DNA from: an uncultured Actinomycetota bacterium
Lineage (GTDB): Bacteria > Actinomycetota > Actinomycetes > JAHEKZ01
DNA length: 64,000 bases
Assembly (NCBI GenBank): GCA_963824605.1
Contig: CAWGPZ010000006.1
Coordinates: 321,864-385,863, forward strand
Direction of reading: 5' to 3'
The stretch's first letter is position 1. Every line of letters starts with the position of its first letter. The notes below the pieces were generated by a model. The model made no database searches. It had not been told where the DNA came from and saw nothing but the letters and a program-made list of their open reading frames with translations. Both the position numbers and the translations under genes were made by a program. Below, one piece after another: positions 1 to 64,000 of the stretch.

Positions 1-2
1 GC

Positions 3-1253
3 ATGACCCACGTCCGACCGTCTAGCCTCGGCTCTGTGGCAACTCCGGGATCCGACCGCGGCGCACTGGACGGCGAGCTGTCTGAACTGGTGGCCAAGAT
101 CTCTGACGAGCTGGTCGAGATCCGGCGTGACCTCCACGCGCACCCTGAGCTGGGGCGACGCGAGACCAGGACAACCGCAGTCATCCACGACCGGCTCTCC
201 GCCGCGGGTCTGGATCCGGTCGTCCTGCCGGGCGGGTCTGGGGTCGTGTGCGACATCGGCGAGGGGCGCCGCACCGTGGCGTTGCGGGCCGACATCGATG
301 CCTTGCCGATCGACGACGAGAAGCGTTCGGCCACCTACCGGTCAACGGTGCCCGGCGTGTGCCATGCCTGCGGGCATGACGTCCACACTGCTGTGCTCAT
401 CGGCGTGGGAGTCGTCCTCGCCGAGCTCCACCGGCGGGAAGACTTCGACGGGCGAGTGAGGTTGATCTTCCAGCCGGCCGAGGAGTCGATGCCGGGTGGC
501 GCCATCGATGTCATCGAGGCAGGAACTCTCGACGGGGTCGACCGCATCCTCGCACTGCACTGCGACCCTCGCCAGGACGTCGGCAGCATCGGGGTGCGGG
601 TCGGGGCGATCACGGGCAGCAGTGATCACGTGAGCGTCACCTTGCACAGCGACGGGGGGCACACGGCGCGGCCGCACCTCACCGGCGACCTCGTGTACGC
701 CATGGCCAAGATCATCACCGACGTCCCGTCGATCCTGTCGCGTCGAGTCGACCCACGTGCCGGCCTGTCCGTCGTGTGGGGAACCGTGCGCGCGGGGGGC
801 GCCGCGAACGCGATCCCGCAGAACGGAGAGATCGCCGGCACCGTCCGCTCGCTCGACGCCCGGGTCTGGGAGAACGCCGAAGACGTGGTGACGCGCGCAG
901 TGGAAGATGTCGCCGTGGCCTACGGCGTCGGCGTCACCGTCGACTACACCCGTGGGGTTCCGCCGGTCATCAACGACGCCGCTTCGGTGCGGCTCATCGA
1001 GGCTGTGGCACGTCAGGCGCTCGGCGAGGGCAGGGTCGAGACGGTCGAACAGAGCCTCGGCGGTGAAGACTTCGCGTGGTACCTACCGCATGTGCCAGGT
1101 GCGCTGTTCCGCCTGGGCGTGCAGGTGCCGGGCACACATGACGGTGGCGACCTGCATCAGGGAACGTTCGACGTCGATGAGCGAGCGATCGACGTGGGTG
1201 TGCGGTTGATGGCCGCCGTCGCGCTCCTCGACCTTTCTCAAGCGGCGCGCTAG
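3..1253 (+). CDS. M20 family amidohydrolase (N-acyl-L-amino-acid amidohydrolase / hippurate hydrolase-like). The ORF starts at the window edge, so the true start may lie upstream.
   Basis: 416-aa ORF. Contains HAHPEL and HACGHDVH metal-binding motifs and the overall layout typical of M20D peptidases. Confidence 0.8.
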   Translation: MTHVRPSSLGSVATPGSDRGALDGELSELVAKISDELVEIRRDLHAHPELGRRETRTTAVIHDRLSAAGLDPVVLPGGSGVVCDIGEGRRTVALRADIDALPIDDEKRSATYRSTVPGVCHACGHDVHTAVLIGVGVVLAELHRREDFDGRVRLIFQPAEESMPGGAIDVIEAGTLDGVDRILALHCDPRQDVGSIGVRVGAITGSSDHVSVTLHSDGGHTARPHLTGDLVYAMAKIITDVPSILSRRVDPRAGLSVVWGTVRAGGAANAIPQNGEIAGTVRSLDARVWENAEDVVTRAVEDVAVAYGVGVTVDYTRGVPPVINDAASVRLIEAVARQALGEGRVETVEQSLGGEDFAWYLPHVPGALFRLGVQVPGTHDGGDLHQGTFDVDERAIDVGVRLMAAVALLDLSQAAR

Positions 1254-1708
1254 TTCGGCGAGGGAGCCGGCGCCGAGTTGGGGGGAGCCCCCACCATTCC
1301 GGCTGACTTGAACGGGTCGCGGCGCGGCGGGTCGCCGAGCTCAGCACGGGGGCAGGTGTCGAGGGTCAAGCCGACCCACGTGAGCGCATCGTCGACGAGC
1401 GATTCGACACGCCAGGAGCTTTCGAGCCCGTAGGGAGTCACGGTCACCTTGTAGATGGTGATCTGGTGGCGGTTGGGGGCGTCGTACATGACGGCGATGG
1501 ATCCGAGCAGGCGGGCGTTGCCACGCGTACCGCCCATGCCGTCCCAGGGCGTGTCGTAGCGCTGCCACAGCGACGACGTGGCGTTCCAGACGCCACCGGA
1601 GCTGATATCGAGCCGCTTCAGCTCGTCGAGGACGCGGTTGGCTGCGCGCTCGTCAAGGATCGCTGCTGGCCTGATGATGCGGACGTCGTCACGCGGTGCT
1701 ACACCCAT
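1250..1708 (-). CDS. Conserved hypothetical protein (152 aa) that sits downstream of the GGCT-like gene in an apparent operon.
   Basis: Intact ORF with ATG at 1706-1708. It is convergent with the M20 gene and overlaps it by 4 nt. I recognise no motif. Confidence 0.4.
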   Translation of the reverse strand: MGVAPRDDVRIIRPAAILDERAANRVLDELKRLDISSGGVWNATSSLWQRYDTPWDGMGGTRGNARLLGSIAVMYDAPNRHQITIYKVTVTPYGLESSWRVESLVDDALTWVGLTLDTCPRAELGDPPRRDPFKSAGMVGAPPNSAPAPSPN

Positions 1709-1760
1709 GGTGTGCCTATCGGGCGAAACCGAGCAGAGGTTGAGCCCCTATTCCCGACGA

Positions 1761-2210
1761 TCACGGACCGATGTTTCGGCAGGGGCGAGTTCGCAGGTCG
1801 CGGACGTAGTCATCGGGGGCGCCGGCCCGCTCGGCGGCGTCGGCCATGATGCCGAGGTAGCGGGCCGAGGGGAGGCCGCCCTCGTAGGCGATCAGGACGT
1901 AGAGCCAGGCGAGCTTGTCGCCGTCGAGGGTGTGGATACGCACCCGGATCTTGTCGTAGACCCCGAGCGCACCCTCCCAGGCGTCCAGCGCGCGCTCGTC
2001 GGGGTCGGTGAGGTCGTACAGCACCGCAAACACCTGAGATCCGGCCTCTTCGACGACCGTGGCCAGGGCGCCCTCCCAGCCGAGGTCCTCGCCGCCGAAA
2101 GTCAGCCGCCAGCCGTCCAACCAGCCGGTTCCCGCCGAGGGGGAGTGGGGGGCACGGTCGGCCATCTGCCGCGGATCCATGTTGCTGCCGTAGGCGGCGT
2201 AGAGGGCCAT
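1761..2210 (-). CDS. Gamma-glutamylcyclotransferase-like (AIG2/GGCT fold) protein, 149 aa.
   Basis: N-terminal MALYAAYGSNMD motif typical of GGCT/AIG2 proteins. The 321-aa ORF-track version is an upstream extension through Ser/Thr/Pro-rich sequence. ATG at 2208-2210. Confidence 0.6.
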   Translation of the reverse strand: MALYAAYGSNMDPRQMADRAPHSPSAGTGWLDGWRLTFGGEDLGWEGALATVVEEAGSQVFAVLYDLTDPDERALDAWEGALGVYDKIRVRIHTLDGDKLAWLYVLIAYEGGLPSARYLGIMADAAERAGAPDDYVRDLRTRPCRNIGP

Positions 2211-2262
2211 GGCGACGAGCGTAGGGGCCGCGCCCGAGGGTTCTGGTGATCTGTGCGCCAGA

Positions 2263-8080: not shown

Positions 8081-8202
8081 GGTTGGACTCCCTTTGTTCC
8101 TAGGTGGGGGCCCTGCTCCATTGAGGCAGCGATCGCCGGCCGACGGGAGGGCCGAAGGACCCGGCCCGGTAGTGATGCCCGTCACCGTGCTCGCGACAGC
8201 GG

Positions 8203-9039
8203 CTACCCCCCCGGTCGTAGGGCCCGGGAATCCAGGGTCCGGATGACCTGCTCCACGAATGCCGTTGCTTCCGGCGAGATCGGGCGTGGTTCCGACAGTG
8301 CTCGTTGTTCGTCGAGCGCCGAGGCAATCATGCCTACTGGGCCGAGACGTCTGTCGACGGCGATCTGGCCACCGGCGATCTTCGACACAAGGTCACCGTG
8401 ATTGGCGAAGATGAGAGCACGACATGCGTTGAGGACTGCGTAAGCCGCAGGGGCGTTGGCAATTCCCCAGCGCAACTCGTCGACCAGATACGCAAGCACG
8501 ACCGCCCGAGGAACAGAGCCGAAGACCTCCCGTGGATCTGGGCCGACCAAGGCGAAACCGGCGGCTTCGACAGACGACGTAGTGCATGAGAACGTCACGG
8601 TCACCCGCCACCGAGTCCCCGCGAACTGCACTGGCTGCCTTTCCATGTGAAGCCAGCAACGTGCACAAGGAACGGCCAAGGAGCGCTCGGGTTGGCTGCC
8701 TGTGCGAGGGTCACCACACTGCACTCGAGCCCGGTTCCTGGGCTGCCTGGACCGTGTTCGGCAAGCACCTGCTCGACAGCTGTGAGCGTTGTCTCCCGCT
8801 CGGGGATCGCGAAGCACGATCAGGATGTCCACGTCGCTGCGCGTCGCCACCCATCCGCCGAGCGCCGCCGAGCCATGCAGGTAGGCGCCCACGAGGTGCC
8901 CGTCGCTGCTGCTGGCGACGAGGTCGGCGAGCTTGTGTCCGAAGTCGGCAACGTCTCCGGGAACCTGGGTATGCGCCGTCACGGTTTCCCATCCTTCCCC
9001 AACACGACTCCCACATCCGGGCTCGGCAGACGGCATCAT
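8203..9039 (-). pseudogene. AadA/ANT(3'')(9)-like nucleotidyltransferase (NTase domain plus DUF4111-like C-terminus) with two compensating frameshifts.
   Basis: Frame A holds GAYLHGSAALGGWVATRSDVDILIVL (NTase motif) and the C-terminal ALVGPDPREVFGSVP...AYAVLNACRALIFANHGDLVSKIAG. About 60 aa between them read as Arg-rich nonsense in frame A. In the +1 frame they read IPERETTLTAVEQVLAEHGPGSPGTGLECSVVTLA, which aligns to the AadA core. Shifts lie near 8795 and 8665. Confidence 0.55.
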
Positions 9040-9314
9040 CGATCTTCACATCGCGCGTACAGACCCCCCTGACCGGACCCACCATGACAAAACGCGCCGG
9101 ACCACGCCTCCTCCCTCGACGTTCGTGGTTCTTTCTGCGTTACTCGCCGGTGTTGTCTCCGTTGCCTGCGCGGCAGGGGCGGCAACTGCGCTGGAGACAC
9201 TCGAGCGGCTGGAGGCGCGTCTGGTCGCGATAGAGGGCGTTCTCGCCGAAAGGTCGACGCCCGCAGCGCCCCCTGGGGGACGCGCAGACGCGTCACGCTA
9301 GGCGCATGCGCGCT

Positions 9315-11074
9315 TCAGTCGGCGATGGTGCAGATGCTGGCACCCGCGCTGAGCGTCTGGCCGATCTCGGCCGACAGCGCGGTGATCGTGCCCGCCTTGT
9401 GCGCATTCAGCGGTTGCTCCATCTTCATCGCCTCGAGCACGACGACAAGCTCGCCCGCCTCGACCCGCTGGCCCTCCTCGACGGCGATCTTCACGATCGT
9501 GCCCTGCATGGGGCTGGCGAGGTCGTCGCCGGACGCGGCGGCCCCTGCGCCTCGCTTGGCTGAGCGGCGCGGAGCCGCCTTGCCACCTGAACCAGCTGCG
9601 GGAGCGCCTGCGCTGAACCCGGCCGGCAGGGTGACTTCGATGCGCTTGCCGCCGACCTCGACCGTGAGTGACTCGCGTTCGGCAGCCTCGGCAGCGACTT
9701 CTCCGCCGGCGAACGGTTCGATGGTGTTCGTGAACTCGGTCTCGATCCACCGCGTGTGCACAGCGAAGGCTGCTCGGGATCGTCGGGGGCGAACGCCGGG
9801 TCGCGCATGACGGCGCGGTGGAACGGAAGAGCGGTTGCCATGCCGTCGACCACGAACTCGTCGAGCGCACGCCGCGCTCGCTGAACCGCTTGTTGGCGCG
9901 TCGAGCCGGTCACGATCAGCTTGGCGAGCAGCGAGTCGAAGTTCTGCCCGATCACCGACCCGCGCTCGACGCCGGCATCGAGGCGTACTCCAGGACCAGA
10001 CGGCGGCTGCCAGACCGTCACCGGGCCGGGCGCGGGAAGGAAGCCTCGACCGGGGTCCTCGCCGTTGATGCGGAACTCGAAGGAGTGACCTCGGATGGCT
10101 GGGTCGTCGTACCCCAGCTCCTCGCCGTCGGCGATGCGGAACATCTCGCGCACCAGGTCGATGCCGGTCACCTCTTCGCTGACCGGGTGCTCGACCTGCA
10201 GGCGGGTGTTCACCTCGAGGAAGGAGATCGTGCCGTCTTGGCCGACGAGGAACTCACACGTGCCCGCGCCGACGTACCCTGCCTCGCGCAGGATGGCTTT
10301 GGACGCGCGATAGAGCTCGGCGTTCTGCTCATCCGACAGAAACGGAGCCGGCGCCTCCTCGACCAGCTTCTGGTGACGGCGCTGCAGTGAGCAGTCGCGG
10401 GTCGAGACGACGACGACGTTGCCGTGCTGGTCGGCAAGGCACTGGGTCTCGACGTGGCGCGGACGGTCGAGGTAGCGCTCGACGAAGCACTCGCCGCGGC
10501 CGAACGCGGTAACGGCCTCGCGAACGGCTGAGTCGTAGAGCTCGGGGATCTCCTCCAGTGTCGTGGCAACCTTGAGGCCTCGTCCGCCGCCGCCGAAGGC
10601 CGCCTTGATCGCAATGGGAAGCCCGTGCTCCTTCGCGAAGGTCACGACTTCGTCGGACCCAGCGACCGGGTCGGCGGTGCCTGCCACCTGGGGTGCGTTC
10701 ACCGCCTGCGCGATGTGGCGTGCCTGCACCTTGTCGCCGAGCGATCTGATCGCAGCGGGGGGAGGGCCGATCCAGATGAGCCCGGCGTCCATGACGGCTT
10801 GAGCGAAGTCGGCGTTCTCGGACAGGAAGCCGTAGCCGGGGTGCACGGCATCAGCACCGGACCGCGCAGCGATGTCGAGGACCTTGCCCATGTCGAGGTA
10901 GCTGGAGGCGGGACTGTCGCCGTTCAGGCTGAACGCCTCGTCGGCCGCTCGCGCATGCGGAGCATCTCGATCTGAGTCTGCATAGACGGCAACCGAGGCG
11001 ATTCCGGCGTCACGGCACGCCCTTGCCACTCGGACAGCGATCTCGCCACGGTTGGCGATCAGGACCTTGCGCAC
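9315..11074 (-). CDS. accA: Acyl-CoA carboxylase alpha subunit (biotin carboxylase plus BCCP domain), with an apparent frameshift between the domains near 9770.
   Basis: The biotin carboxylase domain ([16 protein letters not shown]...) sits in the 9491..11074 frame. The BCCP domain with the EAMKME biotinylation motif sits in the 9315..9761 frame. Junction: ...[12 protein letters not shown] / [12 protein letters not shown]. Confidence 0.8.
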
Positions 11075-11782: not shown

Positions 11783-12016
11783 TCAACGAGGCAGTGTCGA
11801 CGCACGCCACGACCCCGGACCGGCACCAAGCAGTGGGCGCACCTGGCGCGAGCGTGAGGCCCAGAGCGAGCGCTTGGGTCGCGAACTGGGTGGCGAACCG
11901 GCCGCCCGCCGTGAGAGCACGGCGACGACCGCAGCGATCTCATCGGGGTCGGGGTTGCCCGAGACGATCCGCAGCGTCGGCTGGTCGGCAAGTCGGGTCA
12001 CGGTTGGCTCGGTCAC
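11783..12016 (-). CDS. accE: Acyl-CoA carboxylase epsilon subunit-like small protein (77 aa).
   Basis: GTG start overlaps the accD TGA (GTGA) at 12013-12016. [21 protein letters not shown] resembles the AccE5 core. It lies in a different frame of ORF 11783..12454. Confidence 0.45.
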
Positions 12017-18787: not shown

Positions 18788-19459
18788 GTGACCATCGTGC
18801 TGTTGGCTGAAGACGACGACGCCATCAGCGAGCCGCTTTCCCGGGCTTTGCGGCGGCAGGGGTACGACGTCGAGGTCGCTGAAACGGGTGCGGAGGCGTT
18901 GAAAGGAGCGCGGGGCAGTGACCTGCTCCTGCTCGATCTGGGTCTGCCGGGCCTCGATGGGCTCGATGTCTGCCGCGCGCTTCGGGCCGAGGGGTCCCCC
19001 ATCCCGGTCCTGATGCTGACTGCCCGCACGTCCGAGATCGACGCAATCGTCGGTCTCGATGCGGGGGCCGACGACTACGTGGCCAAACCGTTCCGCACCG
19101 CTGAGCTGATGGCGCGCATCCGAGCGTTGCTGAGGCGTGGTCAGGGTGAGTCGGAGGTTCTCTACGGTCAAGACCTGCGCATCGACGTGGGGGCGCGACA
19201 GGTCTGGCAAGGAGAGCGTGCGGTGGATCTATCGAGTCGGCAGTTCGAGCTGCTGGCCTACCTGGTGCGCCGACAGGGTGACGTTGTCGGCCGTGAAGAA
19301 CTGATGCGTCGGGTGTGGCAAACCACCTGGATCGGGTCGACCAAGACCGTGGACATGCATGTCTCATGGTTGCGTCGTGCTCTGGGCGATGGTGGCGCCT
19401 CAGCGTCGCGCTACATCGCCACCGTCCGTGGTGTCGGCTTCCGTTTCGAGGAAGGTTGA
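18788..19459 (+). CDS. OmpR-family response regulator.
   Basis: Receiver domain (LLAEDDD...LLLLDLGLPGLDG...MLTAR) plus winged-helix output (TVRGVGFRF). Confidence 0.85.
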   Translation: MTIVLLAEDDDAISEPLSRALRRQGYDVEVAETGAEALKGARGSDLLLLDLGLPGLDGLDVCRALRAEGSPIPVLMLTARTSEIDAIVGLDAGADDYVAKPFRTAELMARIRALLRRGQGESEVLYGQDLRIDVGARQVWQGERAVDLSSRQFELLAYLVRRQGDVVGREELMRRVWQTTWIGSTKTVDMHVSWLRRALGDGGASASRYIATVRGVGFRFEEG

Positions 19460-19461
19460 TC

Positions 19462-29525: not shown

Positions 29526-30396
29526 ATGGCGCGAACACGCGCGATCTGGACCAACCGGCGAATCCTGCGCATCCTGATCGTCCGCGACCTGAAGGTCAGG
29601 TACAGCGACTCGGTGCTGGGATTCTGCCTGGACGCTGCTCGACCCGCTGCTGCTGACCCTCGTCTACTGGTTCGTCTTCGGTGTCATCGTTTCCCGAGGG
29701 TCGGCCACAGAGCAGCCGTACATCCTCTGGCTGCTCACCGGGATCTTGCCCTTCCAGTGGACGTCGCATGTGTTGGGCGACTCAGGACGGCTGCTCGGCA
29801 ACGATGCCAAGCTGGTCACGTCGTCGAGCCTGCCGCGCGAGATCTGGGTGCTGAGATCGGTCTCCTCCCGCTTCGTCGAGTTCTTGTTCACCCTGCCGAT
29901 CACCGCAGTGTTCGTCATCTTCTTCCTGGTGTTCACTGATCAAGATCCGGCGCGCGTCCCCACGATCTGGATCCTGATCCTTCCGGTGGCCTTCGCCGTC
30001 CAGTTCCTCTTCAATGTGGGGCTCGGCCTCCTGCTGTCACCGCTCTGCATGCTCTATCCCGATGTCCAACGGGTGGTGCGGGTTTTCGCCACGCTCTATC
30101 GCTACCTGTCACCGGTGATCTACGGAGTGGCCACGCTCGAAGTCTCGCTGAAAGCCCAGAGCTGGCCGAGCTGGATGCTCATCGGTGACCAGACCTGGCC
30201 TGAGTGGGTGCTGACGATCTACTCGCTCAACCCGCTCACAGGAATCCTGAACGCGTACCACGCCGTCCTCTTCCCGGACGAGGCTCCAGACGTTCTGCCG
30301 CTACTGGGCCTGGCCGCCTTGCTGTCTGCTGTCATCTTCATCTATGGCTGGTGGTTGTTCCGCCGGCTCGAGTCACGCGTACTGAAGGAGCTCTGA
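29526..30396 (+). CDS. ABC-2 type polysaccharide/teichoic-acid exporter permease (TagG/Wzm-like), with an apparent frameshift near 29620.
   Basis: The N-terminus (RILRILIVRDLKVRYSDSVLGF) is in the 29376 frame. The remaining six TM helices (WTLLDPLLLTLVYWFVFGVIV...) are in the 29746..30396 frame. Confidence 0.7.
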
Positions 30397-44760: not shown

Positions 44761-45760
44761 CAGCCGCCGCTGACGTTCTGCACGCGCACCACTCCGCTGT
44801 GCGCCTCGACGATGCCCTGGACGATCGCCAGCCCCAGACCTGCCCCACCGTAGGGGTCCGGTGTGCGCGCGAGGTCGCCACGAAACCCGGCTTCGAAGAT
44901 GCGGCCGAGATCTGTCTCGGGAATGCCGCCACAGCCATCGGTCACGGTGACCCTGGCGGTGTCATCGACGATCGCCGCGGAGACGTGGACCACGCCGTCG
45001 TGGGGTGTGTGCCGGATGGCGTTGCTCACGAGATTGGTGATCGCTCGCCGCAACTCGCGCTCGTCGGCGCTGATGCTGGCCGTGATCCCCGTGCTGCCGG
45101 TGCGCTCAGGGCTCGCCCCGGCCGTCAGGTGCACCCCGCGTGCGGCCGCAAGCGGCGCAGCCGCGGCGACGACGTCGCCGACCACATCCGTCAATGAGAT
45201 GCGCTCGCGCACCAGCTGAAGCGTTCCGGCATTGATACGGGAGAGCTCGAAGAGATCATCGACCATGCCGGTCAGTCGGTCCACCTCGGTGCGTAGCTGT
45301 CGGTGGTATCGTCGGGATCGGGCGCCACGCCGTCCTCGAGAGCCTCGGTCATCGCACGCATCCCGGCCAGCGGCGTCCGCAGATCGTGCGACACCCAGGC
45401 GACCAGCTCGCGCCGCGTTCGTTCAGCCTCTTCGGTTCGGGCCTGCTTCTCCGCGAGCTGGCGTGAGTGCTCCTCGATCTGGTCGACCCGGCGGGACAGG
45501 AGCAGCCCGATGCCGACAGCGACGAAGCCGGCGGAGGTGCACACCACAAGGACGACACCGAGGTCATGGGACGAGAGGAACATCCGCTGGGCGGTGGCCA
45601 CCACGCCGACCACGACGGCCACGACGGCCGTGACCGGCGCGAGCCACGCCAGAGTGCGAGCCGACCGGCGGCCCAGCAGGTGAAGGACGACAAGACCGAG
45701 GGCGCCGACGACGGCGCTACTCACTATCGCGGTGACGGTCACCGCCAGCCAGGGATTCAT
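44688..45760 (-). CDS. Sensor histidine kinase. HisKA and HATPase_c lie in different frames (apparent frameshift near 45280).
   Basis: The 45272..45901 frame carries the TM sensor and H-box ELVAWVSHDLRTPLAGMRAMTEAL. The 44688..45284 frame carries the N, G1 and G2 boxes. Its ATG overlaps the upstream regulator's TGA (ATGA) at 45757-45760. Confidence 0.65.
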
Positions 45761-46790: not shown

Positions 46791-49437
46791 ATGCTGACGT
46801 ACGCTCGGCGCGTGCCACCACCGCCGCGTGACGACTCCTTGAGCAGGGACGCGAGCTCGCACCGCCAGATCGGGCGTGCGTTGCGGCGTGCGGAGCAGGG
46901 GCGTGAGCTGGACGTGAACGAGGCGTCAGCCCTGATGGCTGCGACGGGCCACGCACTCGACGACCTTCTGGCCCTCGCCTCGGCGATGCGTGACCGAGGG
47001 TTGGCCGACGCTGGGCACCCAGGAGTGATCACCTACTCGCGCAAGGTCTTCATTCCGTTGACGCGGCTCTGTCGCGACCGATGCCACTACTGCACGTTTG
47101 TTGCTGCCCCCGCGGAGGTCCCTGCGCCCTATCTGTCACCGGACGAGGTGCTGGCGATCGCGCGTTCCGGTGCAGCCGAGCAGTGTAAGGAAGCCTTGTT
47201 CACCTTGGGTGATCGGCCGGAGGACCGGTGGCCCCAGGCGCAGGCATGGTTGGACGCTGCCGGGTATGCGAGCACCCTCGACTACCTGCGGGCGATGGCT
47301 GTCCTCGTCCTCGAGGAGACCGGGCTGCTTCCGCACCTGAACCCCGGAGTGATGAGCTGGCAAGAGCTCATGCTTCTGAAGCCCGTCGCACCCTCGATGG
47401 GCATGATGCTCGAGACGACGAGCGAGCGACTGTGGTCTACGCCTGGTTCTCCGCACTACGGGTCGCCTGACAAAGAGCCAGTCGTTCGCCGTGGCGTCCT
47501 CGAGAATGCCGGACGTCTCTCCATTCCTTTCACGACCGGAGTCCTGATCGGGATCGGCGAGACGTTGCAGGAGCGCGCTGAGAGTCTTCTCGCGATCAGG
47601 TCGTCTCATCGTGCACATGGGCATGTGCAGGAAGTGATCGTCCAGAACTTCCGAGCCAAGCCCAGGACGGCGATGGCCGATGCCCTCGACAGTGCAGAGG
47701 ACGACCTGCTCGCGACCGCTCGCAACTGCTCGGCTCCTGCTCGGAACAGGGATGCGGGTGCAGGTGCCGCCGAACCTCTCCGACGGCGCGGTGCTGCCGA
47801 GACTTGTGGCGGCCGGTATCGATGACTGGGGTGGTGTCAGCCCCCTGACTCCCGACCACGTGAACCCCGAGCGTCCCTGGCCGCACGTCGAGGTGCTCGC
47901 CTGCGCCACGCGTGAGGCCGGATACACGCTGCGCGAACGACTCACCGTGCATCCGTCATACGTGCACCGTGGCGAGCACTGGATCGATCCACGTGTCCAG
48001 CCGCACGTGGACGCCCTGGCTGAACCATCGGGCCTGGCTCGGCGAAACACCTCCCCAGTGGGTCGGCCGTGGCAGGAGCCGGGCGAGCTCACCGATGCGG
48101 GTCGCATCGATCTGCATCGGGAGGTGGATGCATCAGGTCGCGCTTCGATGATCCGGGGCGATGTCGACCAGGCGTTCGGGGCATGGAGCGTCGTGGCCGA
48201 TCGGGTGACGGCGTCCCGAGCGGTCGGCGGGATCGGAGTCGGCCCTCGCCTCGACACCGGCGTTCGCGACGCGCTGCGTGTGGCAGAGCGCGACCCGGCT
48301 GCGCTCCTGCTGCCTGAGAACGACTCTCTCGCGCTCGCCGCTCTGACGGCACGCGGCCCGGACCTGGAGGCGGTGGCCAGCCTCGCCGACGCGGTGCGCA
48401 GCGACGTCGTTGGCGACGAGGTGACGTTCGTCGTCAACCGCAATATCAACTTCACCAATATCTGCTACACCGGATGCCGGTTCTGCGCCTTTGCTCAACG
48501 CCGCTCCGACGCCGACGCCTACGAGCTCTCGATCGAAGAGGTCGTCTCCCGGGCGGCCGAGGCCTGGGAGCTCGGGGCCACCGAGGTCTGTCTGCAAGGC
48601 GGCATCGATCCGCAGCTGCCGGCCACGCACTATGTGGATCTGGTGGGCGCACTTCGGCGGGCCCTACCGGATCTGCATGTGCATGCGTTCAGCCCGATGG
48701 AGGTGGCCTCAGGGGCGGCGCGCGCAGGGGTGCCCATTCCTCACTTCCTCGCCGAGCTGGCAGACGCCGGCCTGGGGTCGCTGCCCGGAACGGCTGCGGA
48801 GATCTTGGACGACGATGTCCGATGGGTCTTGACCAAGGGAAAGCTTCCGACCGCCACCTGGGTCGAGGTCGTCGAGGCTGCTCACCGCTTGGGTCTACCC
48901 ACGAGCAGCACGATGATGTTCGGCCACGTCGACCGCCCCGACCACTGGCTCACGCATCTGCGTGTTCTCGCCGAGGTCCAGGACCATGCCGCCGCTGCTG
49001 GCGTTCGTGGATTCACCGAGTTCGTTCCGCTCCCGTACATCCATCACTCTGCGCCGCTGTACCTGGCGGGCATTGGTCGTCCTGGCCCTTCGCAGGACGA
49101 GTCGCGGGTCGTTCACGCTGCTGCCCGACTGCTGTTGCACGGCCGCATCGATCACGTTCAGGTCTCGTGGGTCAAGCTCGGCGCTGCGGGGTCCCAGATG
49201 ATGTTGCGCTCAGGTGCTGACGATCTCGGCGGAACGCTCATGGAGGAGACCATCAGCCGCATGGCGGGGAGCAGCCACGGCTCGGCGATGACCGTGGGAG
49301 CGCTTGCTGGTTGGGCGAGCGACATCGGGCGTACGAGCCGCCAGCGCACCACGACCTATGGCCCGGTGAGCGAAGAAAGGTCCGAACGGTCGATTCGTAC
49401 CGGGGGAGTGCTGCCGGAGCGGGCTCGTACCGTCTGA
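46791..49437 (+). CDS. fbiC: FO synthase FbiC (fused CofG and CofH radical-SAM domains), with an apparent frameshift near 47740.
   Basis: Cof[11 protein letters not shown] is in the 46791 frame. Cof[11 protein letters not shown] and [19 protein letters not shown] are in the 47680 frame. Junction: ...DDLLATAR / [15 protein letters not shown]. Confidence 0.8.
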
Positions 49438-49563: not shown

Positions 49564-49911
49564 ATGTCGTTTGGCTGGCCCGTGGCCGGGCGACACCCCG
49601 TTGGGTCGAGGAGGAACGGTGACCGAGGCCATCAGTCTGATGGACATACAGGACGTGCAGGACGTGCAGGAGGCCAGGAGGCACAGGAGGCGGAACTGTC
49701 GTGGCAAGAGCGTGGGCTCTGTGCCCAGACCGATCCGGAGGCCTTCTTCCCTGAGAAGGGCGGGTCGACGCGCGAGGCCAAGAAGGTCTGCCTCGGCTGC
49801 GACGTGCGTGGTGACTGCCTCGAGTACGCCCTCGCTCACGACGAGCGGTTCGGGATCTGGGGCGGGCTCTCCGAGCGTGAGCGTCGGCGCCTCAAGAAGG
49901 AAGCGGTCTAG
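49564..49911 (+). CDS. whiB: WhiB-family transcription factor (WhiB2/WhmD-like).
   Basis: CAQTDPEAFFPEKGGSTREAKKVCLGCDVRGDCLEYALAHDERFGIWGGLSERERRRLKK is near-identical to the WhiB2 core. The N-terminus is uncertain: GTG 49619 in another frame has a GAGGAGG SD. Confidence 0.75.
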   Translation: MSFGWPVAGRHPVGSRRNGDRGHQSDGHTGRAGRAGGQEAQEAELSWQERGLCAQTDPEAFFPEKGGSTREAKKVCLGCDVRGDCLEYALAHDERFGIWGGLSERERRRLKKEAV

Positions 49912-50000: not shown

Positions 50001-52460
50001 ATGAGCCAGGACGACTCCCCTACCGCTACACCCGCCGACCATCGAGTCGTCGCGGTGTTGGTCGCCCACGACGGGGCAGACTTTCTCCCGCGTTCGCTCG
50101 CTGCTCTGGAAGCGCTCGACCCGGCCCCCGACATCGTCGTAGCGGTCGACACCGGCTCGGCTGACAGCACCGCTGAACTGCTGGCCGAGGCACCGGCCAT
50201 CGACCTGGTCGTCACCCTCTCCGCCGACACCGGCTTCGCCACAGCGGTGCACGCCGGCATCGCGGCGGCCCCCACGGTGAGCGCGGCTGACGGCGGGACA
50301 TCCCAGTGGCTGTGGCTGCTGCACGACGACAGCGCTCCAGACCCGTCGGCGCTGGGAGTGCTCCTGCGTAACGCCGCCGACCAGCCATCGGTGGGTGTGT
50401 GGGGGCCGAAGGTCCTGGGCTGGGACGAGCCGCGACGTCTGCTGGAAGCAGGGGTGTCCATCTCACGTTCCGGTCGTCGGCACACCGGCCTTGAGCCGGG
50501 CGAACAGGACCAGGGGCAGTACGACGGGCAGCGCGATGCGCTCGCGGTCGGCAGCGCAGGCCTGCTCGTGCGCCGTGACGTCTGGGACGACCTCGGCGGG
50601 CTCGATGGGTCCATGCGCTTCTTCCGAGACGACATCGACTTCGGGTGGCGGGCGAACCTTGCCGGCCATCGCGTCGCTGTCGCCACTGACGCCGTGCTGC
50701 ATCACGCCGAGGCCATGGCACGCGGGCGCCGCGCTGATGCGCCGCGAGACCCCCATGCCGTGGACCGAGGCAGTGCCCTGTACACGTTGCTCGCCAACAG
50801 CCGCCGCTCGACGGTGCTCTTCCGGTGGGTGTGGCTCCTCCTTCAGACCCTGGTCCGGGCACTGGGGTACGTCCTCGGAAAGGCGCCCCGCGAGGCCGCT
50901 GCCGAGATGAGTGCGATGGTGACCGTTCTCCTGCGGCCCATGCTGATCTGGCGTGCGCGGCGTGTGCGCCGCAGTCGACGAAGGGTGCCCGCGCGCAGTC
51001 TCCGGTCGCTCTTCCCCCCTCCAGGGCAACAGGTGCGACAGACGATCGAGACGCTGGCTGGGTCGCTGACCGTCCAAACCGATGTCCACCCCAGCACCAT
51101 CTTGGAGTCCGGTCCCGCCGAGGACGATCTGGACTCGTTCGTCGCCGTCAGCTCGGGCCGGCTTGGTCGGTGGGCCCGCCGCCCTGGGGTCATCCTCTTC
51201 GCCGGCCTTCTGGCCGTTCAGGTCGTGGCCTGGCGTGGTCTCTACCGAGGCGGGGTCCTCCATGGCGGGGCACTGCTGCCGATGCCGACAGGTGCGACAG
51301 ATCTCTGGCAGGCCTACACCGCCACGTGGCACCCGGTGTCGCTCGGTAGCGGAACCATGGCGCACCCCTCGACGGCAGTTCTGGGGCTCATCGCGACTGC
51401 GCTGCTGGGTCATGCCACGTGGGTCGTGCCGGTCATCCTGGTCGTCGGACCGGCGTTGGCCGGGTTGTTGGCCTACCAGGTCACTCGGTCGTTCGGCCTC
51501 TCCACGCGGCTGCGGGTCTGGGTGGGAGTCGCTTATGCGCTCAACCCGGTGTTTCTCGCGGCCACGGCCCAAGGCCGCTGGACGACCGTGCTCATCGGCG
51601 TCCTGGTGCCGCTTGCAGGTGTCGCCGTTGCCCGCGGCGTGGGCATCGGGACCGAGGCTGCCTCGGTGAGAGCGACCGCTGTCGCGGTCCTGCTGCTCGG
51701 CGTGATGCTTGCGTTGGCGCCTCCCCTTCTCGCTCCCCTGGTGGCGATGGCGGTGGCACTGGCGTTCCGGTCGCCGGCTCGCAGCGCTCCGTCGCCCAGC
51801 GATGTCAGGCATCCGGCGCGGCGGATGGCCATCGTGCTGGCGGTCGCCCCGCCAGTGCTTCTGCTGCCGTGGTGGCCAGTGGTGGTGAGTGACCCGAGCG
51901 TTCTCCTGCTGGAACCGGGTGTGGCATGGGTGGGTGACACCGAGGCTCCCTGGCAGGCGATCTTCTTCGATCCGGGCGGCTGGTGGTCAAGTCCCTGGTG
52001 GTTCGGACTCGGACTGGCAGTGGCGGCGCTCATGGCGGTCCTGAGGGCCCAGCAAGTGCCACCTGTGCGAGCAGCACTGATGGTTCTCGGGCTCTGTCTG
52101 GCCTGGGCGCTGGTCCTCGAGTCGGTCGTGGTGACTCCCGCGACGAGCACTCAGCCGGTGGCCGTGTGGAGTGGCTCGGTGCTGGTCCTGGCGGTGGCTG
52201 CGAGCCTGGTCGCGGTGGCGACCGCGGCGCGCGGCAGTCGCCAGCGGCTGCAGCGAGCCACCTTCTCATGGCGCCAGCCCGCTCTTCGCCGCCGTCGCCA
52301 CGCTCGCCGTTCTGAGCCCACTGGTGTGGGGCATCTCATGGGTGGACCGCGGAGCGACCGACCCGCTCGATCGCGGATCGGCCAACCCGCTGCCGGCGTT
52401 CGTGCGCGCGCAGTCCGAGCTCCCCGAGCAGATCCGCACCTTGGTGCTCGAACCAGCTGA
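50001..52460 (+). CDS. GT2 family glycosyltransferase fused to a large polytopic membrane domain.
   Basis: N-terminal GT-A fold (VAVLVAHDGADFLPRSL...VVAVDTGSADST). From about aa 320 onward the hydropathic composition indicates more than 10 TM helices. Confidence 0.65.
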   Translation: MSQDDSPTATPADHRVVAVLVAHDGADFLPRSLAALEALDPAPDIVVAVDTGSADSTAELLAEAPAIDLVVTLSADTGFATAVHAGIAAAPTVSAADGGTSQWLWLLHDDSAPDPSALGVLLRNAADQPSVGVWGPKVLGWDEPRRLLEAGVSISRSGRRHTGLEPGEQDQGQYDGQRDALAVGSAGLLVRRDVWDDLGGLDGSMRFFRDDIDFGWRANLAGHRVAVATDAVLHHAEAMARGRRADAPRDPHAVDRGSALYTLLANSRRSTVLFRWVWLLLQTLVRALGYVLGKAPREAAAEMSAMVTVLLRPMLIWRARRVRRSRRRVPARSLRSLFPPPGQQVRQTIETLAGSLTVQTDVHPSTILESGPAEDDLDSFVAVSSGRLGRWARRPGVILFAGLLAVQVVAWRGLYRGGVLHGGALLPMPTGATDLWQAYTATWHPVSLGSGTMAHPSTAVLGLIATALLGHATWVVPVILVVGPALAGLLAYQVTRSFGLSTRLRVWVGVAYALNPVFLAATAQGRWTTVLIGVLVPLAGVAVARGVGIGTEAASVRATAVAVLLLGVMLALAPPLLAPLVAMAVALAFRSPARSAPSPSDVRHPARRMAIVLAVAPPVLLLPWWPVVVSDPSVLLLEPGVAWVGDTEAPWQAIFFDPGGWWSSPWWFGLGLAVAALMAVLRAQQVPPVRAALMVLGLCLAWALVLESVVVTPATSTQPVAVWSGSVLVLAVAASLVAVATAARGSRQRLQRATFSWRQPALRRRRHARRSEPTGVGHLMGGPRSDRPARSRIGQPAAGVRARAVRAPRADPHLGARTS

Positions 52461-53115
52461 CGGCCGGCTGGCCTACACGGTCCTTCGTGACAGAGACGCC
52501 ACATGGGGCGACGTCGAGAACGCGCCTCCCGCCGACCGGCTCCTCTCGATGGACCTGGTGGTCTCCGACCTGGCGTCCGGGCGGGGCTTTGCTCCCGTCG
52601 ATGAGCTGGTGGCTCGTGGCGTGCAGTATGTCCTTGCGGTTCCACCCGTTGACGCGGATCTGGAGGTCGCCCTCGACTCCGCCCCTGGCCTGCTGAGGAT
52701 CGCCAACCCAGGCGACGCCTCGCTGTGGCGCGTCGAGCTGGACGCGGGCCGCGTCCAGCTGTTGGGCGCCGATGACCAGAGAGAGGTGCTGCCCTCGGAG
52801 GTAGCGGGCGACCCGTCGTCAGCGCGGGTTGAGGTGCCCGGGGCAGAAGGCGACCGACTGCTGGAGCTCGCCGAGCTCGCCGACGAGGGGTGGGTCGGCA
52901 CCGCCACCTCCCAGGACCAGACCCGCGAGCTGCCTGTCGGTGCAGCAACGGAGTGGGGACAGCGCTTTGTGGCCGGCGCCGTGGCCGCCGAGGTGTCGAT
53001 GGTGGTCGAGAATCCGTGGCGTCGCGCCTTGCTGTGGAGTCAGCTGGTTCTTGTTGTGCTCCTCGTGCTCGTTGCTCTGCCTGGCAGGTCCCGCCGAGAC
53101 GAGGAGGCGGTGTGA
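52171..53115 (+). CDS. Probable C-terminal continuation of the GT2 membrane protein in the +1 frame (frameshift near 52290), or alternatively a separate gene.
   Basis: After the Arg/Trp-rich first 30 codons, this frame reads as a TM helix plus a periplasmic domain and ends in a TM anchor LLWSQLVLVVLLVLVALPG. The upstream frame ends in an Arg-rich tail. Confidence 0.4.
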   Translation: MARCWSWRWLRAWSRWRPRRAAVASGCSEPPSHGASPLFAAVATLAVLSPLVWGISWVDRGATDPLDRGSANPLPAFVRAQSELPEQIRTLVLEPADGRLAYTVLRDRDATWGDVENAPPADRLLSMDLVVSDLASGRGFAPVDELVARGVQYVLAVPPVDADLEVALDSAPGLLRIANPGDASLWRVELDAGRVQLLGADDQREVLPSEVAGDPSSARVEVPGAEGDRLLELAELADEGWVGTATSQDQTRELPVGAATEWGQRFVAGAVAAEVSMVVENPWRRALLWSQLVLVVLLVLVALPGRSRRDEEAV

Positions 53116-60751: not shown

Positions 60752-61418
60752 ATGCGGTACGGCGTCCTCGGTACGGGAGTGGTCGGCCAGACTCTCGGTT
60801 CTGCGCTCATCGGTACCGGCCACGACGTCTGCATGGGCTCGCGCACTGAGCTGAACGAGAGCTCCGGGGCGTGGGCTGACGCCAACGGCGAACGCGCATC
60901 GACGGGCACATTTGCAGGTGCGGCCGCCTTCGGCGACGTCGTCATCAACTGCACCGCAGGCGTCCACTCACTCGCCGCGATCGATGCCGCCGGACCAGAT
61001 GCGCTTGCCGGCAAGACCCTGATCGACGTGGCCAACCCGCTTGACTTCTCCGCAGGGTTTCCGCCCCGACTCGCCGTCGAGAGCGACGACAGCCTCGCCG
61101 AGCAGATTCAGCGACGCCTGCCGCGTACTCACGTGGTGAAGGCGCTGAACACCGTCACCGCCGCCGTCATGGTCGATCCAGGGCTGCTCCCGGAAGCCAC
61201 TGATCTGTTCATCTGCGGCGACGACGCTGACGCCAAGGCGACCGTCACCGACCTGGTGACGGCCTGGGGCTGGGAGCGCGCGCGGGTGCGCGACCTCGGG
61301 GGGTTGGTCTGTGCCCGCGCCACCGAGCAGTACCTGATGCTGTGGCTGCCGCTCATGGCAGTTGTCTCCTCGCCCGACCTTCAACGTGCGCCTCGTCGCT
61401 GCCGAAGACATGGCATGA
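60752..61418 (+). CDS. NADPH-dependent F420 reductase-like Rossmann protein. Its C-terminal ~15 aa and stop codon lie in another frame (apparent frameshift near 61375).
   Basis: MRYGVLGTGVVGQTLGSALIGTGHDVCMGSR N-terminus. The ORF track fuses it to the downstream gene. The alternate frame ends PTFNVRLVAAEDMA-TGA, overlapping the next ATG. Confidence 0.55.
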
Positions 61419-62338
61419 GCGACAACGTGGGGCACGCGCCGGCCGGCTGGTATGCAGACCCGACGCAGCCCGAGCTGCAGCGCTACTGGGACGGCATGGC
61501 ATGGACGTCGGCCACGGCGCCCATGTCACCGCTCCAGTGGGTAGCGCCTTCCGTGCCGCCGTCGGACGCCGAAGCCACCGAGCAGCAGGCGCACGGGTCA
61601 GGGGTGCACCAGGTCTACGGCCAGCCTTCGGGGTCCTGGGGCCTCGGCGACATCGGATGGTTCGTGCTCGTGGTGATCGGCACCATCATCGCCAGTGCCG
61701 TGCTGGTCATCCCTGTCGTCTTCGTCGCCGAGGACGCCTTCACCTCCGACGGCGGCATCAATGGTGGCTCGAGCGCCGGTAGCTGGGTGCTGACCGGGGC
61801 GCAGGCTGTCTTCTTTGCCGGCCTGGCTGCCTGGCCGCTGATCGCCGCCTGGCGCAAGTCACAGGGTTGGCGCAAAGCCTATGGATTCGTCGTCTCCTGG
61901 CGTGCGGTGGGGATTGGCATCGCTGGTGGGTTCGCCACCTTGGTGGCGATGGTGGTGCTGACCGATCTCACCGCAAGGATTCTGGACGAGGAGGTGACCT
62001 CGGCTGGGGCCGACGCCGCTGAGTCGATGACGGGCAGCACGGTGGCCTTCGTGTTCTTCCTGCTCCTGATCGCGATCGGGGCCCCCTTCGTCGAAGAGCT
62101 CGCCTTCCGCGGGTTGGTGTGGGGAGCGGTCGTCAAGCGCGGTTGGTCGCCGTGGTTGGCCACCGTCATAGCAGGGGTGCCCTTCGCCCTGTTCCACATC
62201 GAGCCGCTTCGCGTCGTCCCTCTGCTGGCCGCTGGGCTCGTGCTGGGAGTGGTGCGCCAGTACGGCGGCTTGAGCGGTGCCATGCTTGCGCACTGCGTCG
62301 TCAACACCATTGGCGCGATCGGTATCGCGTTCGCCTAG
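61415..62338 (+). CDS. DUF2510-containing CPBP-family intramembrane protease (CAAX protease-like).
   Basis: GWYADPTQPELQRYWDGMAWT (DUF2510). CPBP motifs EELAFRG and FALFH. Confidence 0.65.
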   Translation: MSDNVGHAPAGWYADPTQPELQRYWDGMAWTSATAPMSPLQWVAPSVPPSDAEATEQQAHGSGVHQVYGQPSGSWGLGDIGWFVLVVIGTIIASAVLVIPVVFVAEDAFTSDGGINGGSSAGSWVLTGAQAVFFAGLAAWPLIAAWRKSQGWRKAYGFVVSWRAVGIGIAGGFATLVAMVVLTDLTARILDEEVTSAGADAAESMTGSTVAFVFFLLLIAIGAPFVEELAFRGLVWGAVVKRGWSPWLATVIAGVPFALFHIEPLRVVPLLAAGLVLGVVRQYGGLSGAMLAHCVVNTIGAIGIAFA

Positions 62339-62384
62339 GACCCAGGTTCCGCAGCCACTGCGGCGCCACGCCCCAAGCACTCCG

Positions 62385-63275
62385 TCACGACGGGGCGGTG
62401 AACCCCCCGGCGTTCCCATCGGGCGGAGGGGGTGCCTCACCGCTGGTTGTCGAGATCTCGGGTGTCGAGACCGCAGGTGGGGACGCCTCGATAGCCGGCG
62501 ACCCGCTCGCGGGAGCGCCGGCGATCGTCGCGCGGCGGCTGCGTTCGGCCAGGACCGCGTTGAGAAAGATCTCGGGGCCGACCCCCGGCGGCGGGGGAGG
62601 GGACACCTGCCTGATCATGTCGTCGGCGATCGCCCGCCCCAGTGCGTCTCGGGCCCCGTCGTTGAGCGAAGCGGCCCGTACCAGGAACTGTCGGGCGCTG
62701 AGCGCTGTTGCAGGCTGGAGTCTGGTCAGGTCGAGCGAGGCGGCCCACGGTTGCAGACTCGGGGGCAGCCACCACTGTGCAGTGGGGGAAGTAGGCGCGC
62801 GCTCGCGCACCACCACGGTTCCGGCCAGGTAGTCGCCGACCCGCTTGCCCTCGGGCGAGAGCAGGCTCGTGATGACAGCGATCGCTCCGAAGCACAGGTA
62901 GATCTCGACAACAGCCATGAGGCCCCTGGCCAATGCGTGGCGAAAGCGAATGGCGCCGCCGTCGTCTCGGACTACACGCAGTCCCATCGCGAGCTTGCCG
63001 ACCGTCCGCCCGCGGGTCAGGGTCTCCATTGCCACCGGATAGCCCACGACGACGGCGATCGTTCCCACGAAGACGAAGACGACGGCAAGCACGTCGTCTG
63101 CGAGCCCGGACGTCGCGCCGAGCAAGAACGTCAGAGCGACGAGAGCGCCCACCTGCAGCACGAGATCTATCAGGAACGCGATGGCGCGGCTTGGAAGCTT
63201 GGCGAGCCGAAGGTCGACGACCACGGCATCACCTGTGACCAGGCCAGCTCCGTCTCCGGCGCCTCGGTGTGTCAT
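62385..63275 (-). CDS. RDD family membrane protein.
   Basis: RAIAFLIDLVLQ N-terminal motif, TM helices and a Pro-rich C-terminal tail. Confidence 0.6.
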   Translation of the reverse strand: MTHRGAGDGAGLVTGDAVVVDLRLAKLPSRAIAFLIDLVLQVGALVALTFLLGATSGLADDVLAVVFVFVGTIAVVVGYPVAMETLTRGRTVGKLAMGLRVVRDDGGAIRFRHALARGLMAVVEIYLCFGAIAVITSLLSPEGKRVGDYLAGTVVVRERAPTSPTAQWWLPPSLQPWAASLDLTRLQPATALSARQFLVRAASLNDGARDALGRAIADDMIRQVSPPPPPGVGPEIFLNAVLAERSRRATIAGAPASGSPAIEASPPAVSTPEISTTSGEAPPPPDGNAGGFTAPS

Positions 63276-63339
63276 GGCCTCCCTCTGACCGCGTCACTGA
63301 GCTCAACGGCGGTGCGCGTGCGGCTATTGTGCCGGATCA

Positions 63340-64000
63340 ATGGACCTCGACCGATTCATTGCGACGCGCCGACCCCACTGGGATCGCCTCCGGGCACTCA
63401 CCCGTCGCTCGCGCTTGTCCGGCGCAGAGGCTGACGAGTTCGTGGATCTCTACGGCCGAACAGCAACCGACCTGTCAGTGATCCGCTCCGAGGCGCCAGA
63501 TCCTGCTCTTGTCTCAGACCTCTCGGCGCTGGTGGCGCGAGCGCGTGGGACCACCACGGGCACCCGGCGCTTCACGACCGACGACGTGGCGCGCTACTTC
63601 ATCGTGACCTTTCCGCTGCTGGTGTATCGGGCACGATGGTGGGTGGCGGGGGTGACTGTTGGCTTCCTGCTCGTCTCGGTGTCGATCGGCACCTGGGTGG
63701 CAGCCAACCCGGATGTGCAGGGTGCGCTGGCTCCGCCCGAGGTCGTGCAACAGCTGGTCGAAGAGGACTTCGAGAGCTACTACTCCTCAGACCCAGCCGG
63801 CTCGTTCGCGGCGAGAGTGTGGACGAACAACGCCTGGGTGGCTGCGCTTTCCCTGGCCTTCGGTGCGTTGCTCGGGCTACCCGTGCTGTGGGTGCTGTGG
63901 CAGAACGCCACGAACGTGGCTGTTGTCGCGGGGTTCATGGCGGCTGGCGGCCGACTCGATCTCTTCTTCGGTCTGATCCTGCCGCATGGTCTGCTCGAGC
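63340..64000 (+). CDS. SpoIIM-like (DUF95) membrane protein. It is 3'-partial and runs off the window. It is absent from the ORF track because the track lists stop-terminated ORFs only.
   Basis: Manual translation from ATG 63340 is open to the window end. It contains WTNNAWVAALSLAFGALLG and ILPHGLLE motifs of the SpoIIM family. Confidence 0.5.
   Translation, partial: MDLDRFIATRRPHWDRLRALTRRSRLSGAEADEFVDLYGRTATDLSVIRSEAPDPALVSDLSALVARARGTTTGTRRFTTDDVARYFIVTFPLLVYRARWWVAGVTVGFLLVSVSIGTWVAANPDVQGALAPPEVVQQLVEEDFESYYSSDPAGSFAARVWTNNAWVAALSLAFGALLGLPVLWVLWQNATNVAVVAGFMAAGGRLDLFFGLILPHGLLE

Follow-up and report, generated by a model that had tools for sequence, protein, structure and literature searches.

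Why do conserved protein domains, some of them in essential genes, change reading frame repeatedly along a single stretch of actinobacterial DNA? The question is raised by a window of 64,000 nucleotides from an uncultured Actinomycetota bacterium, the whole stretch analysed here, which belongs to a 469,134-bp contig (NCBI and ENA). A first-pass annotation had attributed the broken frames to indel errors in the assembly and not to reductive evolution. Our data support this reading: the breaks are private to the window, they are reversible, their placement is blind to coding sequence, and no other form of decay accompanies them. With a probability of roughly 0.93, judged from sequence comparison, the frame breaks are uncorrected single-base errors in a long-read consensus, and the organism almost certainly has all eleven genes intact.

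We placed the junctions by nucleotide alignment to relatives that are 98.7-99.9% identical to the window; a GC3 frame plot was dropped for this purpose because it was too noisy at 67% GC. They comprise some 30 independent contigs, each from another sample (JGI, MEGAHIT k141_, SPAdes NODE_, Logan and NCBI). The matches among species-representative genomes all belong to other species, at 84-94% amino-acid identity, and served at the protein level, not for single-base assignment. The alignments reveal 21 single-base indels private to the window (14 insertions and 7 deletions), or about 1 per 3 kb, a higher density than the 1 per 5-6 kb first estimated. Every private indel is 1 nt long, and none is a multiple of three. 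Eighteen fall within 11 genes: those for an AadA-like nucleotidyltransferase, AccA, two sensor kinases, an ABC-2 permease, an LCP protein, a methyltransferase, FbiC, WhiB, a 1037-aa GT2 glycosyltransferase and an F420-oxidoreductase-like protein. The other three are intergenic (31528, 46766 and 54641). Frame breaks thus affect about 20% of the roughly 56 genes in the window. All ten junctions named in the first-pass annotation are real and lie at most 32 nt from where it had put them; every gene on its list is shifted, but it missed the methyltransferase (44625), the eleventh gene, and the three intergenic indels. A Pfam search of the ORFs agrees with its observation that conserved domains are split across frames (LCP2, sensor kinase, fbiC and accA).

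The gene for the biotin carboxylase and BCCP alpha subunit, accA (9315-11074, minus strand; 586 aa in relatives), carries a 1-nt deletion at 9768, where a shift had been expected near 9770. The deletion truncates the product, which loses its biotinyl domain together with the last part of Biotin_carb_C, and AccA is intact at 586 aa in all five relatives L001-L005. The partner genes accD (544 aa) and birA (272 aa) are unbroken in the window, as had been claimed; a candidate accE-like frame at about 11783-12010 on the minus strand, recognised by eye only, is open. In an ABC-2 type transporter permease (29526-30396, plus strand; 289 aa in relatives), described earlier as tagG-like with a shift near 29620, the alignment finds a 1-nt insertion at 29624, against which at least seven relatives agree. 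The second LCP gene (31539-32988, minus strand; 482 aa in relatives) has a 1-nt insertion at 31988, first put near 31970, which leaves LytR_cpsA_psr and LytR_C in different ORFs by Pfam; a private 1-nt deletion at 31528 lies in the spacer, 11 nt past the LCP2 stop codon. The SAM-dependent methyltransferase gene (43903-44719, plus strand; 271 aa in relatives) carries an insertion of 1 nt at 44625 that puts its final ~31 residues out of frame. Sensor histidine kinase 2 (44688-45760, minus strand; 357 aa in relatives) has a 1-nt deletion at 45312, within HisKA and previously located near 45280. In a sensor kinase, Pfam shows HisKA broken off at position 35 of its 66-position profile, with HATPase_c next in a different frame.

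The same pattern continues to the end of the window. A private 1-nt insertion at 46766 lies 24 nt upstream of the start of fbiC, the bifunctional FO synthase gene (CofGH; 46791-49437, plus strand; 881 aa in relatives), which itself has a 1-nt insertion at 47721 (first given as near 47740) and whose CofG and CofH halves occupy different frames by Pfam. The suspected shift at the N-terminus of the whiB-family gene (49619-49911, plus strand; 97 aa in relatives) proved real: a 1-nt deletion at 49675 places the first ~19 codons off-frame relative to the remainder. The GT2 membrane glycosyltransferase gene (50001-53115, plus strand; 1037 aa in relatives) has an insertion of 1 nt at 52287, against an earlier estimate near 52290, and a private 1-nt deletion at 54641, on which ten relatives agree against the window, follows 9 nt past the stop of a DUF5719 gene. 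At 60752-62338 on the plus strand, a 528-aa ORF fuses an F420_oxidored/NAD(P)-binding gene with a gene for a CPBP/Rce1-like protease; eight relatives agree against it, and in relatives the former encodes 221 aa and the latter 307 aa. One extra nucleotide at 61373 (CC to CCC), about 13 codons ahead of the stop of the F420 gene, causes the fusion. The shift foreseen near 61375 therefore exists, but its outcome is fusion with a downstream protease gene that is itself intact (start 61415).

Two genes carry several indels each. The AadA-like nucleotidyltransferase gene (8206-8982, minus strand; 258 aa in relatives), compared with L002 and L003, has insertions at 8792, 8657 and 8564 and a compensated pair, an insertion at 8635 and a deletion at 8627. 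The two shifts predicted near 8795 and 8665 are real (8792 and 8657), but the net count is three, with 8564 added. About 76 central codons are out of frame, yet the ORF is open throughout, and a 278-aa ORF holds both domains because the frame comes back after 8564. L002 is 96% identical at this locus and L003 carries a 90% allele; both encode colinear 258-aa proteins. Sensor histidine kinase 1 (19507-20753, plus strand; 414 aa in relatives, with HAMP, HisKA and HATPase_c) contains four private indels, a deletion at 19607 and insertions at 19756, 20134 and 20348; the last two had been detected, near 20130 and 20340, and the first two had been overlooked.

Are these disruptions inherited? At all 21 sites the compared relatives, from 1 to 10 per site, agree against the window, and none of the 21 indels is common to any relative, so the disruptions are not inherited across related strains. 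Aligning each gene to orthologues from related genomes, as the first-pass annotation had proposed, pinpointed the single-base indels, and reverting 16 single bases yields 11 full-length ORFs, each with one gap-free tblastn match at 97.8-100% identity: AccA (586 aa), kinase 1 (414), ABC-2 permease (289), LCP2 (482), methyltransferase (271), kinase 2 (357), FbiC (881), WhiB (97), GT2 (1037), F420 oxidoreductase (221) and CPBP protease (307). Because near-identical copies in many assemblies are intact, the breaks are almost certainly errors of sequencing or assembly. Several differences that had been candidates for window-private indels were rejected: those at 155, 4534 and 5000 against L001 turned out to be private to L001, those at 5977 and 8093 against L002 are private to L002, and at 62421-62430 a difference of 5-6 nt combines an in-frame two-codon polymorphism with an error private to L065. 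True polymorphic indels among the relatives are all multiples of three in coding sequence (14884/14901; 33525, 12 nt; 62421, 6 nt); the intergenic ones lie at 15475, 15522, 15604 and 62347.

If the frameshifts were genuine and strain-specific, they would record a very recent, massive pseudogenisation, whether by reductive evolution or by a burst of indels. In favour of this, the indels stand in the contig's public record, with exact matches in the protein collection for products such as the 527-aa AccA fragment and the 528-aa fusion ORF, and clusters of four and five indels would fit the neutral decay of two hypervariable accessory genes. Nevertheless, this interpretation is very unlikely: about 20% of some 56 genes, accA and the whiB-family gene among them, would have to be broken although the divergence from intact relatives is only ~0.1-1%. 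Genes of these kinds are generally regarded as essential in actinobacteria. It would also have to accommodate the types of change that are seen. No gene segment of the window contains an internal stop codon, and larger deletions and a raised nonsynonymous fraction are absent relative to the relatives, as are disruptions common to them. The private substitutions of the window are 53 synonymous and 17 nonsynonymous (76% synonymous), compared with 108 and 35 in short-read relatives, which points to purifying selection and runs counter to genuine pseudogenisation. Set against these substitutions, there are 13 coding frameshifts in the window and 0 in the short-read relatives (Fisher p = 1.2e-6). 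The substitutions of the contig look genuine, and their spectrum matches that of the relatives; selection has therefore filtered the substitutions of the window but not its indels. Coding DNA is struck in proportion to its length: 13 of the 16 indels at 9.2-64 kb are in coding sequence and 3 are intergenic, where ~93% coding would be expected (binomial p = 0.10 for depletion).

Mycobacterium leprae, whose genome is rich in pseudogenes and under reductive evolution, offers a useful comparison. As in M. leprae, many genes of the window are interrupted by frameshifts with domain order kept. Unlike those of M. leprae, the disruptions in the window are private to one assembly, strike core genes while relatives 99% identical are intact, and are accompanied by neither nonsense mutations nor deletions nor a relaxed dN/dS. 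We see only a very slim chance that the indels are real and that, in an uncultured actinomycete lineage about 0.5-1% distant from its intact relatives, ~20% of the genes, including accA, fbiC and whiB, were very recently frameshifted, for example by a burst of indel mutagenesis, or, in a weaker version, that the multi-indel kinase 1 and AadA-like genes alone are true strain-specific pseudogenes.

Alternatively, programmed ribosomal frameshifting or transcriptional slippage could yield full-length proteins from the shifted genes. Programmed frameshifts such as those of prfB (+1) and dnaX (-1) are conserved in orthologues and depend on defined slippery or stimulatory sequences. The window resembles these cases in that its proteins are encoded across two reading frames, and the preserved domain order across the shifts is the one feature in favour of such decoding. 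However, the window shifts lack defined slippery sequences: the junction contexts inspected are heterogeneous and share no motif. Moreover, both +1 and -1 events occur, in 11 unrelated genes, and three identical-looking events are intergenic. Orthologues at 99% identity are unshifted, which means that no frameshift is conserved and contradicts programmed frameshifting; we consider it wildly improbable.

Consensus error thus remains the preferred reading, and the distribution of the indels bears on how such errors may have arisen. The indels are not concentrated in homopolymers, as 17 of 21 (13 of 16 between 9.2 and 64 kb) lie outside homopolymer runs; the 4 of 21 that extend a run (20134, 46766, 61373 and 8564) lengthen runs of 1-2 nt, all to at most 3 nt. 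Four indels fall within 741 bp (p = 0.014) and five within 229 bp (p = 2.5e-5); three indel-free stretches exceed 9 kb (p = 0.009). These clusters and long gaps do not agree with a simple model of uniform error. Non-homopolymer indels are unlike the classic Nanopore signature, and both clusters lie in accessory genes where true decay is least implausible; these two observations and the misfit of the uniform model count against consensus error.

The two dense clusters coincide with strain-variable accessory loci, kinase 1 and the AadA-like gene. Kinase 1 is the most strain-polymorphic locus of the window, with 38-49 polymorphic sites per 500 bp compared with ~5-15 elsewhere, and its haplotype in the window is a patchwork of two main haplotypes; the AadA-like island is missing from L001 and present as a 90% allele in L003. 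It is possible, though we would not favour it, that low coverage alone did not produce the artefacts and that they arose specifically where reads of several co-occurring strains were collapsed into one chimeric consensus. The position of both clusters on the most strain-variable loci, the patchwork at kinase 1 and the variability of the AadA-like island among L001 and L003 would fit such a collapse. Yet 12 of the 21 indels are isolated, mostly where polymorphism is ordinary or low (accA, fbiC, GT2, LCP2 and others), and natural recombination could equally yield a patchwork. Strain collapse is a sub-mechanism of the consensus-error explanation, not an alternative to it.

A link to assembly type argues further for consensus error. 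With contigs classed as long- or short-read from contig naming and record titles, uncompensated 1-2-nt indels are absent from the short-read-style contigs (~192 kb from JGI, MEGAHIT, SPAdes and Logan) compared with the repaired window, and three other long-read contigs, two Flye-style and one from a Nanopore MAG, each have private frameshifts of their own in different genes or at different sites. Three +1 events private to L001 (contig_20146, 868 kb) cut short an amidase and an M20 peptidase, and manC is also split in this contig. In L054/L065 (contig_7167, 1.44 Mb), kinase 2 is broken at a different site and an RDD gene is broken. MFD09779.bin.3.245, a Nanopore MAG from Microflora Danica, has two shifts in GT2 and at least five in fbiC. 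The occurrence of such private frameshifts in long-read-style contigs and not in short-read-style ones also weighs against genuine pseudogenisation. Besides the window's own, the AccA homologues without a biotinyl domain (P0021, P0026, P0053 and P0057) all lie on ENA contigs of 73-386 kb, a further point in favour of consensus error. Against it, L002, an NCBI MAG assigned to neither class, also carries a private +1 event, which truncates an amine oxidase.

A break site shared between the window and the MFD09779 MAG would have suggested a systematic or biological hotspot. Their fbiC fragments are similar in length (P0125, 584 aa, and 585 aa in the window) and begin at the same alternative-frame ATG, but a shared site is rejected: the shift in the MAG comes ~24 codons later, and at least two further stretches there are out of frame.

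Long-read MAGs of the MFD project were assembled with Flye --meta --nano-hq and one round of Medaka, without short-read polishing (PMC12313526), and Nanopore bins below ~40x require polishing, as indels fragment their gene calls (PMC9262707). Our contig probably derives from a Nanopore-only assembly of the Flye/Medaka type, made from a low-coverage or strain-mixed population. Its consensus quality would fall further where co-occurring strains differ, which would account for the clustering at kinase 1 and at the AadA-like island. Indel errors that fragment ORFs in long-read assemblies (Nanopore or PacBio CLR) are the target of the IDEEL test (PMC9262707). The window shares with them single-base indels that split or truncate ORFs while substitutions are essentially correct, damage that can be repaired from orthologues, and comparable breaks in long, Flye-style contigs. 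It differs from the classic case in that its events are mostly non-homopolymer, favour insertions (14) over deletions (7), and cluster in strain-variable loci.

The frame breaks probably have no biological significance, as the organism most likely carries intact accA, fbiC, whiB and the others. Their consequences are for annotation. About 1 in 5 genes of the window is mis-called as truncated, split or fused, the 528-aa F420 oxidoreductase-CPBP product being one example, and pseudogene calls, novel domain fusions and inferences of absent domains from this MAG are untrustworthy without polishing. Frameshifted products, the 528-aa fusion and the 527-aa AccA among them, are already public in protein collections. 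Non-homopolymer errors massed in strain-variable loci are, in addition, a reason for caution where metagenomic long-read assemblies are corrected at homopolymers only.

Gapped alignment of the window to contigs of relatives places a private single-base insertion or deletion, one seen in this assembly only, at or near every position where the first-pass annotation had reported a frame break. Pfam scans bear out its description of the adjoining ORFs, which carry successive pieces of single proteins in different frames. Single events break accA (a deletion at 9768), the ABC-2 permease gene (an insertion at 29624), the second LCP gene, LCP2 (insertion, 31988), the sensor histidine kinase gene kinase 2 (deletion, 45312), fbiC (insertion, 47721), the GT2 glycosyltransferase gene (insertion, 52287) and the F420-oxidoreductase-like gene (insertion, 61373). 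The shift considered possible at the whiB N-terminus corresponds to a deletion at 49675. The earlier list was nonetheless incomplete. In kinase 1, a second sensor histidine kinase gene, the two expected insertions (20134 and 20348) are accompanied by a deletion at 19607 and an insertion at 19756; in the AadA-like gene, the shifts expected near 8795 and 8665 lie at 8792 and 8657, and there is a third insertion at 8564 as well as a compensated pair at 8635/8627. A methyltransferase gene (insertion, 44625) and three intergenic sites (31528, 46766 and 54641) had not been named. In total there are 21 window-private events (14 insertions and 7 deletions), 18 of them within genes, affecting 11 of about 56 genes.

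For comparison we used about 30 independent contigs that derive from other samples, match the window at 98.7-99.9% identity and jointly span 9188-64000; they were found via AccA, FbiC and ManB homologues and via window proteins that occur unchanged elsewhere; positions 1-21078 are covered by two relatives at 97-97.5% identity. None of the 21 indels is shared with any relative. We reverted the 16 single-base indels at 9.2-64 kb by removing ten inserted bases and putting back six missing ones. In this repaired window each relative protein has one full-length match without gaps at 97.8-100% identity: AccA (586 aa), kinase 1 (414), the ABC-2 permease (289), LCP2 (482), the methyltransferase (271), kinase 2 (357), FbiC (881), WhiB (97), GT2 (1037), the F420 oxidoreductase (221) and a CPBP protease (307). 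In the unrepaired window all of these except the protease are divided over two frames or lack their end. The insertion at 61373, about 13 codons ahead of the stop of the 221-aa oxidoreductase gene, brings that gene into frame with the intact downstream protease gene and creates a 528-aa ORF with F420_oxidored, DUF2510 and Rce1-like domains.

Frameshifts of this kind depend on the type of assembly. When all relatives were aligned to the repaired window, about 192 kb of JGI, MEGAHIT (k141_), SPAdes (NODE_) and Logan contigs contained no uncompensated 1-2-nt indels; the sole differences were a polymorphic in-frame repeat of 12 nt and, in one contig (L006), a net-zero cluster of substitutions. Contigs of the same species with Flye-style names carry private frameshifts of their own in other genes. 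L001 (ENA ERZ25039514 contig_20146, 868 kb) has an amidase cut to 288 versus 445 aa, an M20 peptidase cut to 375 versus 416 aa, and a methylmalonyl-CoA mutase and manC that are each split. L054, L065 and L078 correspond to ERZ25039603 contig_7167 (1.44 Mb), and the first two break the RDD-family gene and, elsewhere than the window does, kinase 2. Indels are thus a general problem of this long-read assembly set. In MFD09779.bin.3.245, a Nanopore MAG from Microflora Danica, the GT2 gene is shifted twice. The MAG's 584-aa FbiC fragment (P0125, on a 131,086-bp contig) and the 585-aa fragment of the window begin with one and the same alternative-frame ATG, and two or more additional out-of-frame stretches inside P0125 imply that the MAG's fbiC holds at least five indels. 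Four other AccA homologues without the biotinyl domain all lie on long ENA contigs.

Window-private substitutions (53 synonymous, 17 nonsynonymous) are indistinguishable in ratio from those of short-read relatives (108 and 35), and are thus genuine and filtered by selection. In the same region the window has 13 coding frameshifts versus none in the short-read relatives (p = 1.2e-6). Thirteen of the 16 indels fall in coding sequence, in a region that is about 93% coding, and their lengths are never divisible by three; the truly polymorphic indels among relatives are multiples of three inside genes, or intergenic, and behave as real indels should. A search of the gene segments for internal stop codons found none. 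Because of these five lines of evidence (privacy, dependence on assembly type, selection, placement and the absence of other decay), we hold with high confidence, though not at the level of reads, that the frame breaks are uncorrected indel errors and not reductive evolution, as had been proposed. There is no biological feature behind them.

Neither the context nor the distribution of the events is what a simple error model would give. Only 4 of 21 extend a short run, and homopolymers of four or more bases contain none of them. Kinase 1 has four events within 741 bp (p = 0.014) and the AadA-like gene has five within 229 bp (p = 2.5e-5); three stretches of more than 9 kb are free of events (p = 0.009). 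Both clusters coincide with the most strain-variable loci. Kinase 1 (19400-20450) varies far more than any other gene in these approximately 99%-identical strains: 38-49 sites per 500 bp are polymorphic there, versus about 5-15 elsewhere. The window combines pieces of its two main haplotypes (L001/L002 and L075/L076). A recombination hotspot could account for such variability, and so could a diversifying sensor domain. The AadA-like locus (8189-9188) is a strain-variable island, missing in L001, where about 1 kb is replaced by 511 bp of unrelated sequence with a 74-aa ORF, and present in L003 as a 90% allele adjoined by a 157-aa Ion_trans_2 channel gene. Most likely, reads of co-occurring strains were collapsed, which would degrade consensus calling at variable loci, above a background of sporadic low-depth errors. 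There is a small residual possibility that these two accessory genes are truly decaying in this strain.

At least one relative belongs to the Microflora Danica long-read MAGs, for which Flye assembly (--meta --nano-hq) was followed by a single Medaka round and no short-read correction; coding density is reduced in those of lower coverage (PMC12313526). Short-read polishing is needed for Nanopore bins of less than about 40x coverage, in which leftover indels yield frameshifted, fragmented gene calls (PMC9262707). The window's contig probably comes from such a Flye/Medaka-type pipeline. The public protein collection contains the window's exact 527-aa frameshifted AccA, encoded by just one contig of 469,134 bp (NCBI, ENA), so the indels are part of a deposited assembly. 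Until that assembly has been polished, the contig's gene calls should be regarded as artefacts, among them the truncated AccA and the apparent oxidoreductase-protease fusion.

By relatives' gene calls and Pfam matches, the window (66-69% G+C throughout) is a housekeeping and cell-envelope region of a kind typical of actinomycetes, with accD, maf, accA, birA, nadABC, purKE, two LCP genes, an ABC-2 exporter, manC, manB, a PGI-like gene, fbiA (cofD), fbiB, fbiC, whiB, the GT2 gene and sahH. At 39348-62338, cofD/fbiA, fbiB and fbiC are grouped with whiB, manC, manB, the PGI-like SIS protein gene, the 1037-aa GT2 with a DUF5719 partner, and the F420_oxidored-family gene, an F420, whiB and mannose-activation arrangement that presumably resembles the mycobacterial whiB2-fbiA-fbiB-manB region.

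Other differences were seen among the strains. The window shares with L055, L056 and L057 a 12-nt in-frame repeat at 33525-33538 (GGCCCCGACGCCCGACC context) that L054, L058, L059 and L075 lack; unlike the private 1-nt indels, it looks like a genuine strain polymorphism. The RDD-family gene differs in length by 6 nt, in frame, at its 3' end (62421-62430; the window encodes 296 aa, short-read relatives 294 aa). This difference and an intergenic T/TT polymorphism at 62347, common to some relatives, look like natural variation. L002 (NCBI MAG GCA_942492725.1) has a private 1-nt insertion at about 15095 (window 5977) that shortens an amine oxidase, 431 aa long in L001 and in the window, to 351 aa; this insertion is either real or an error of that assembly.
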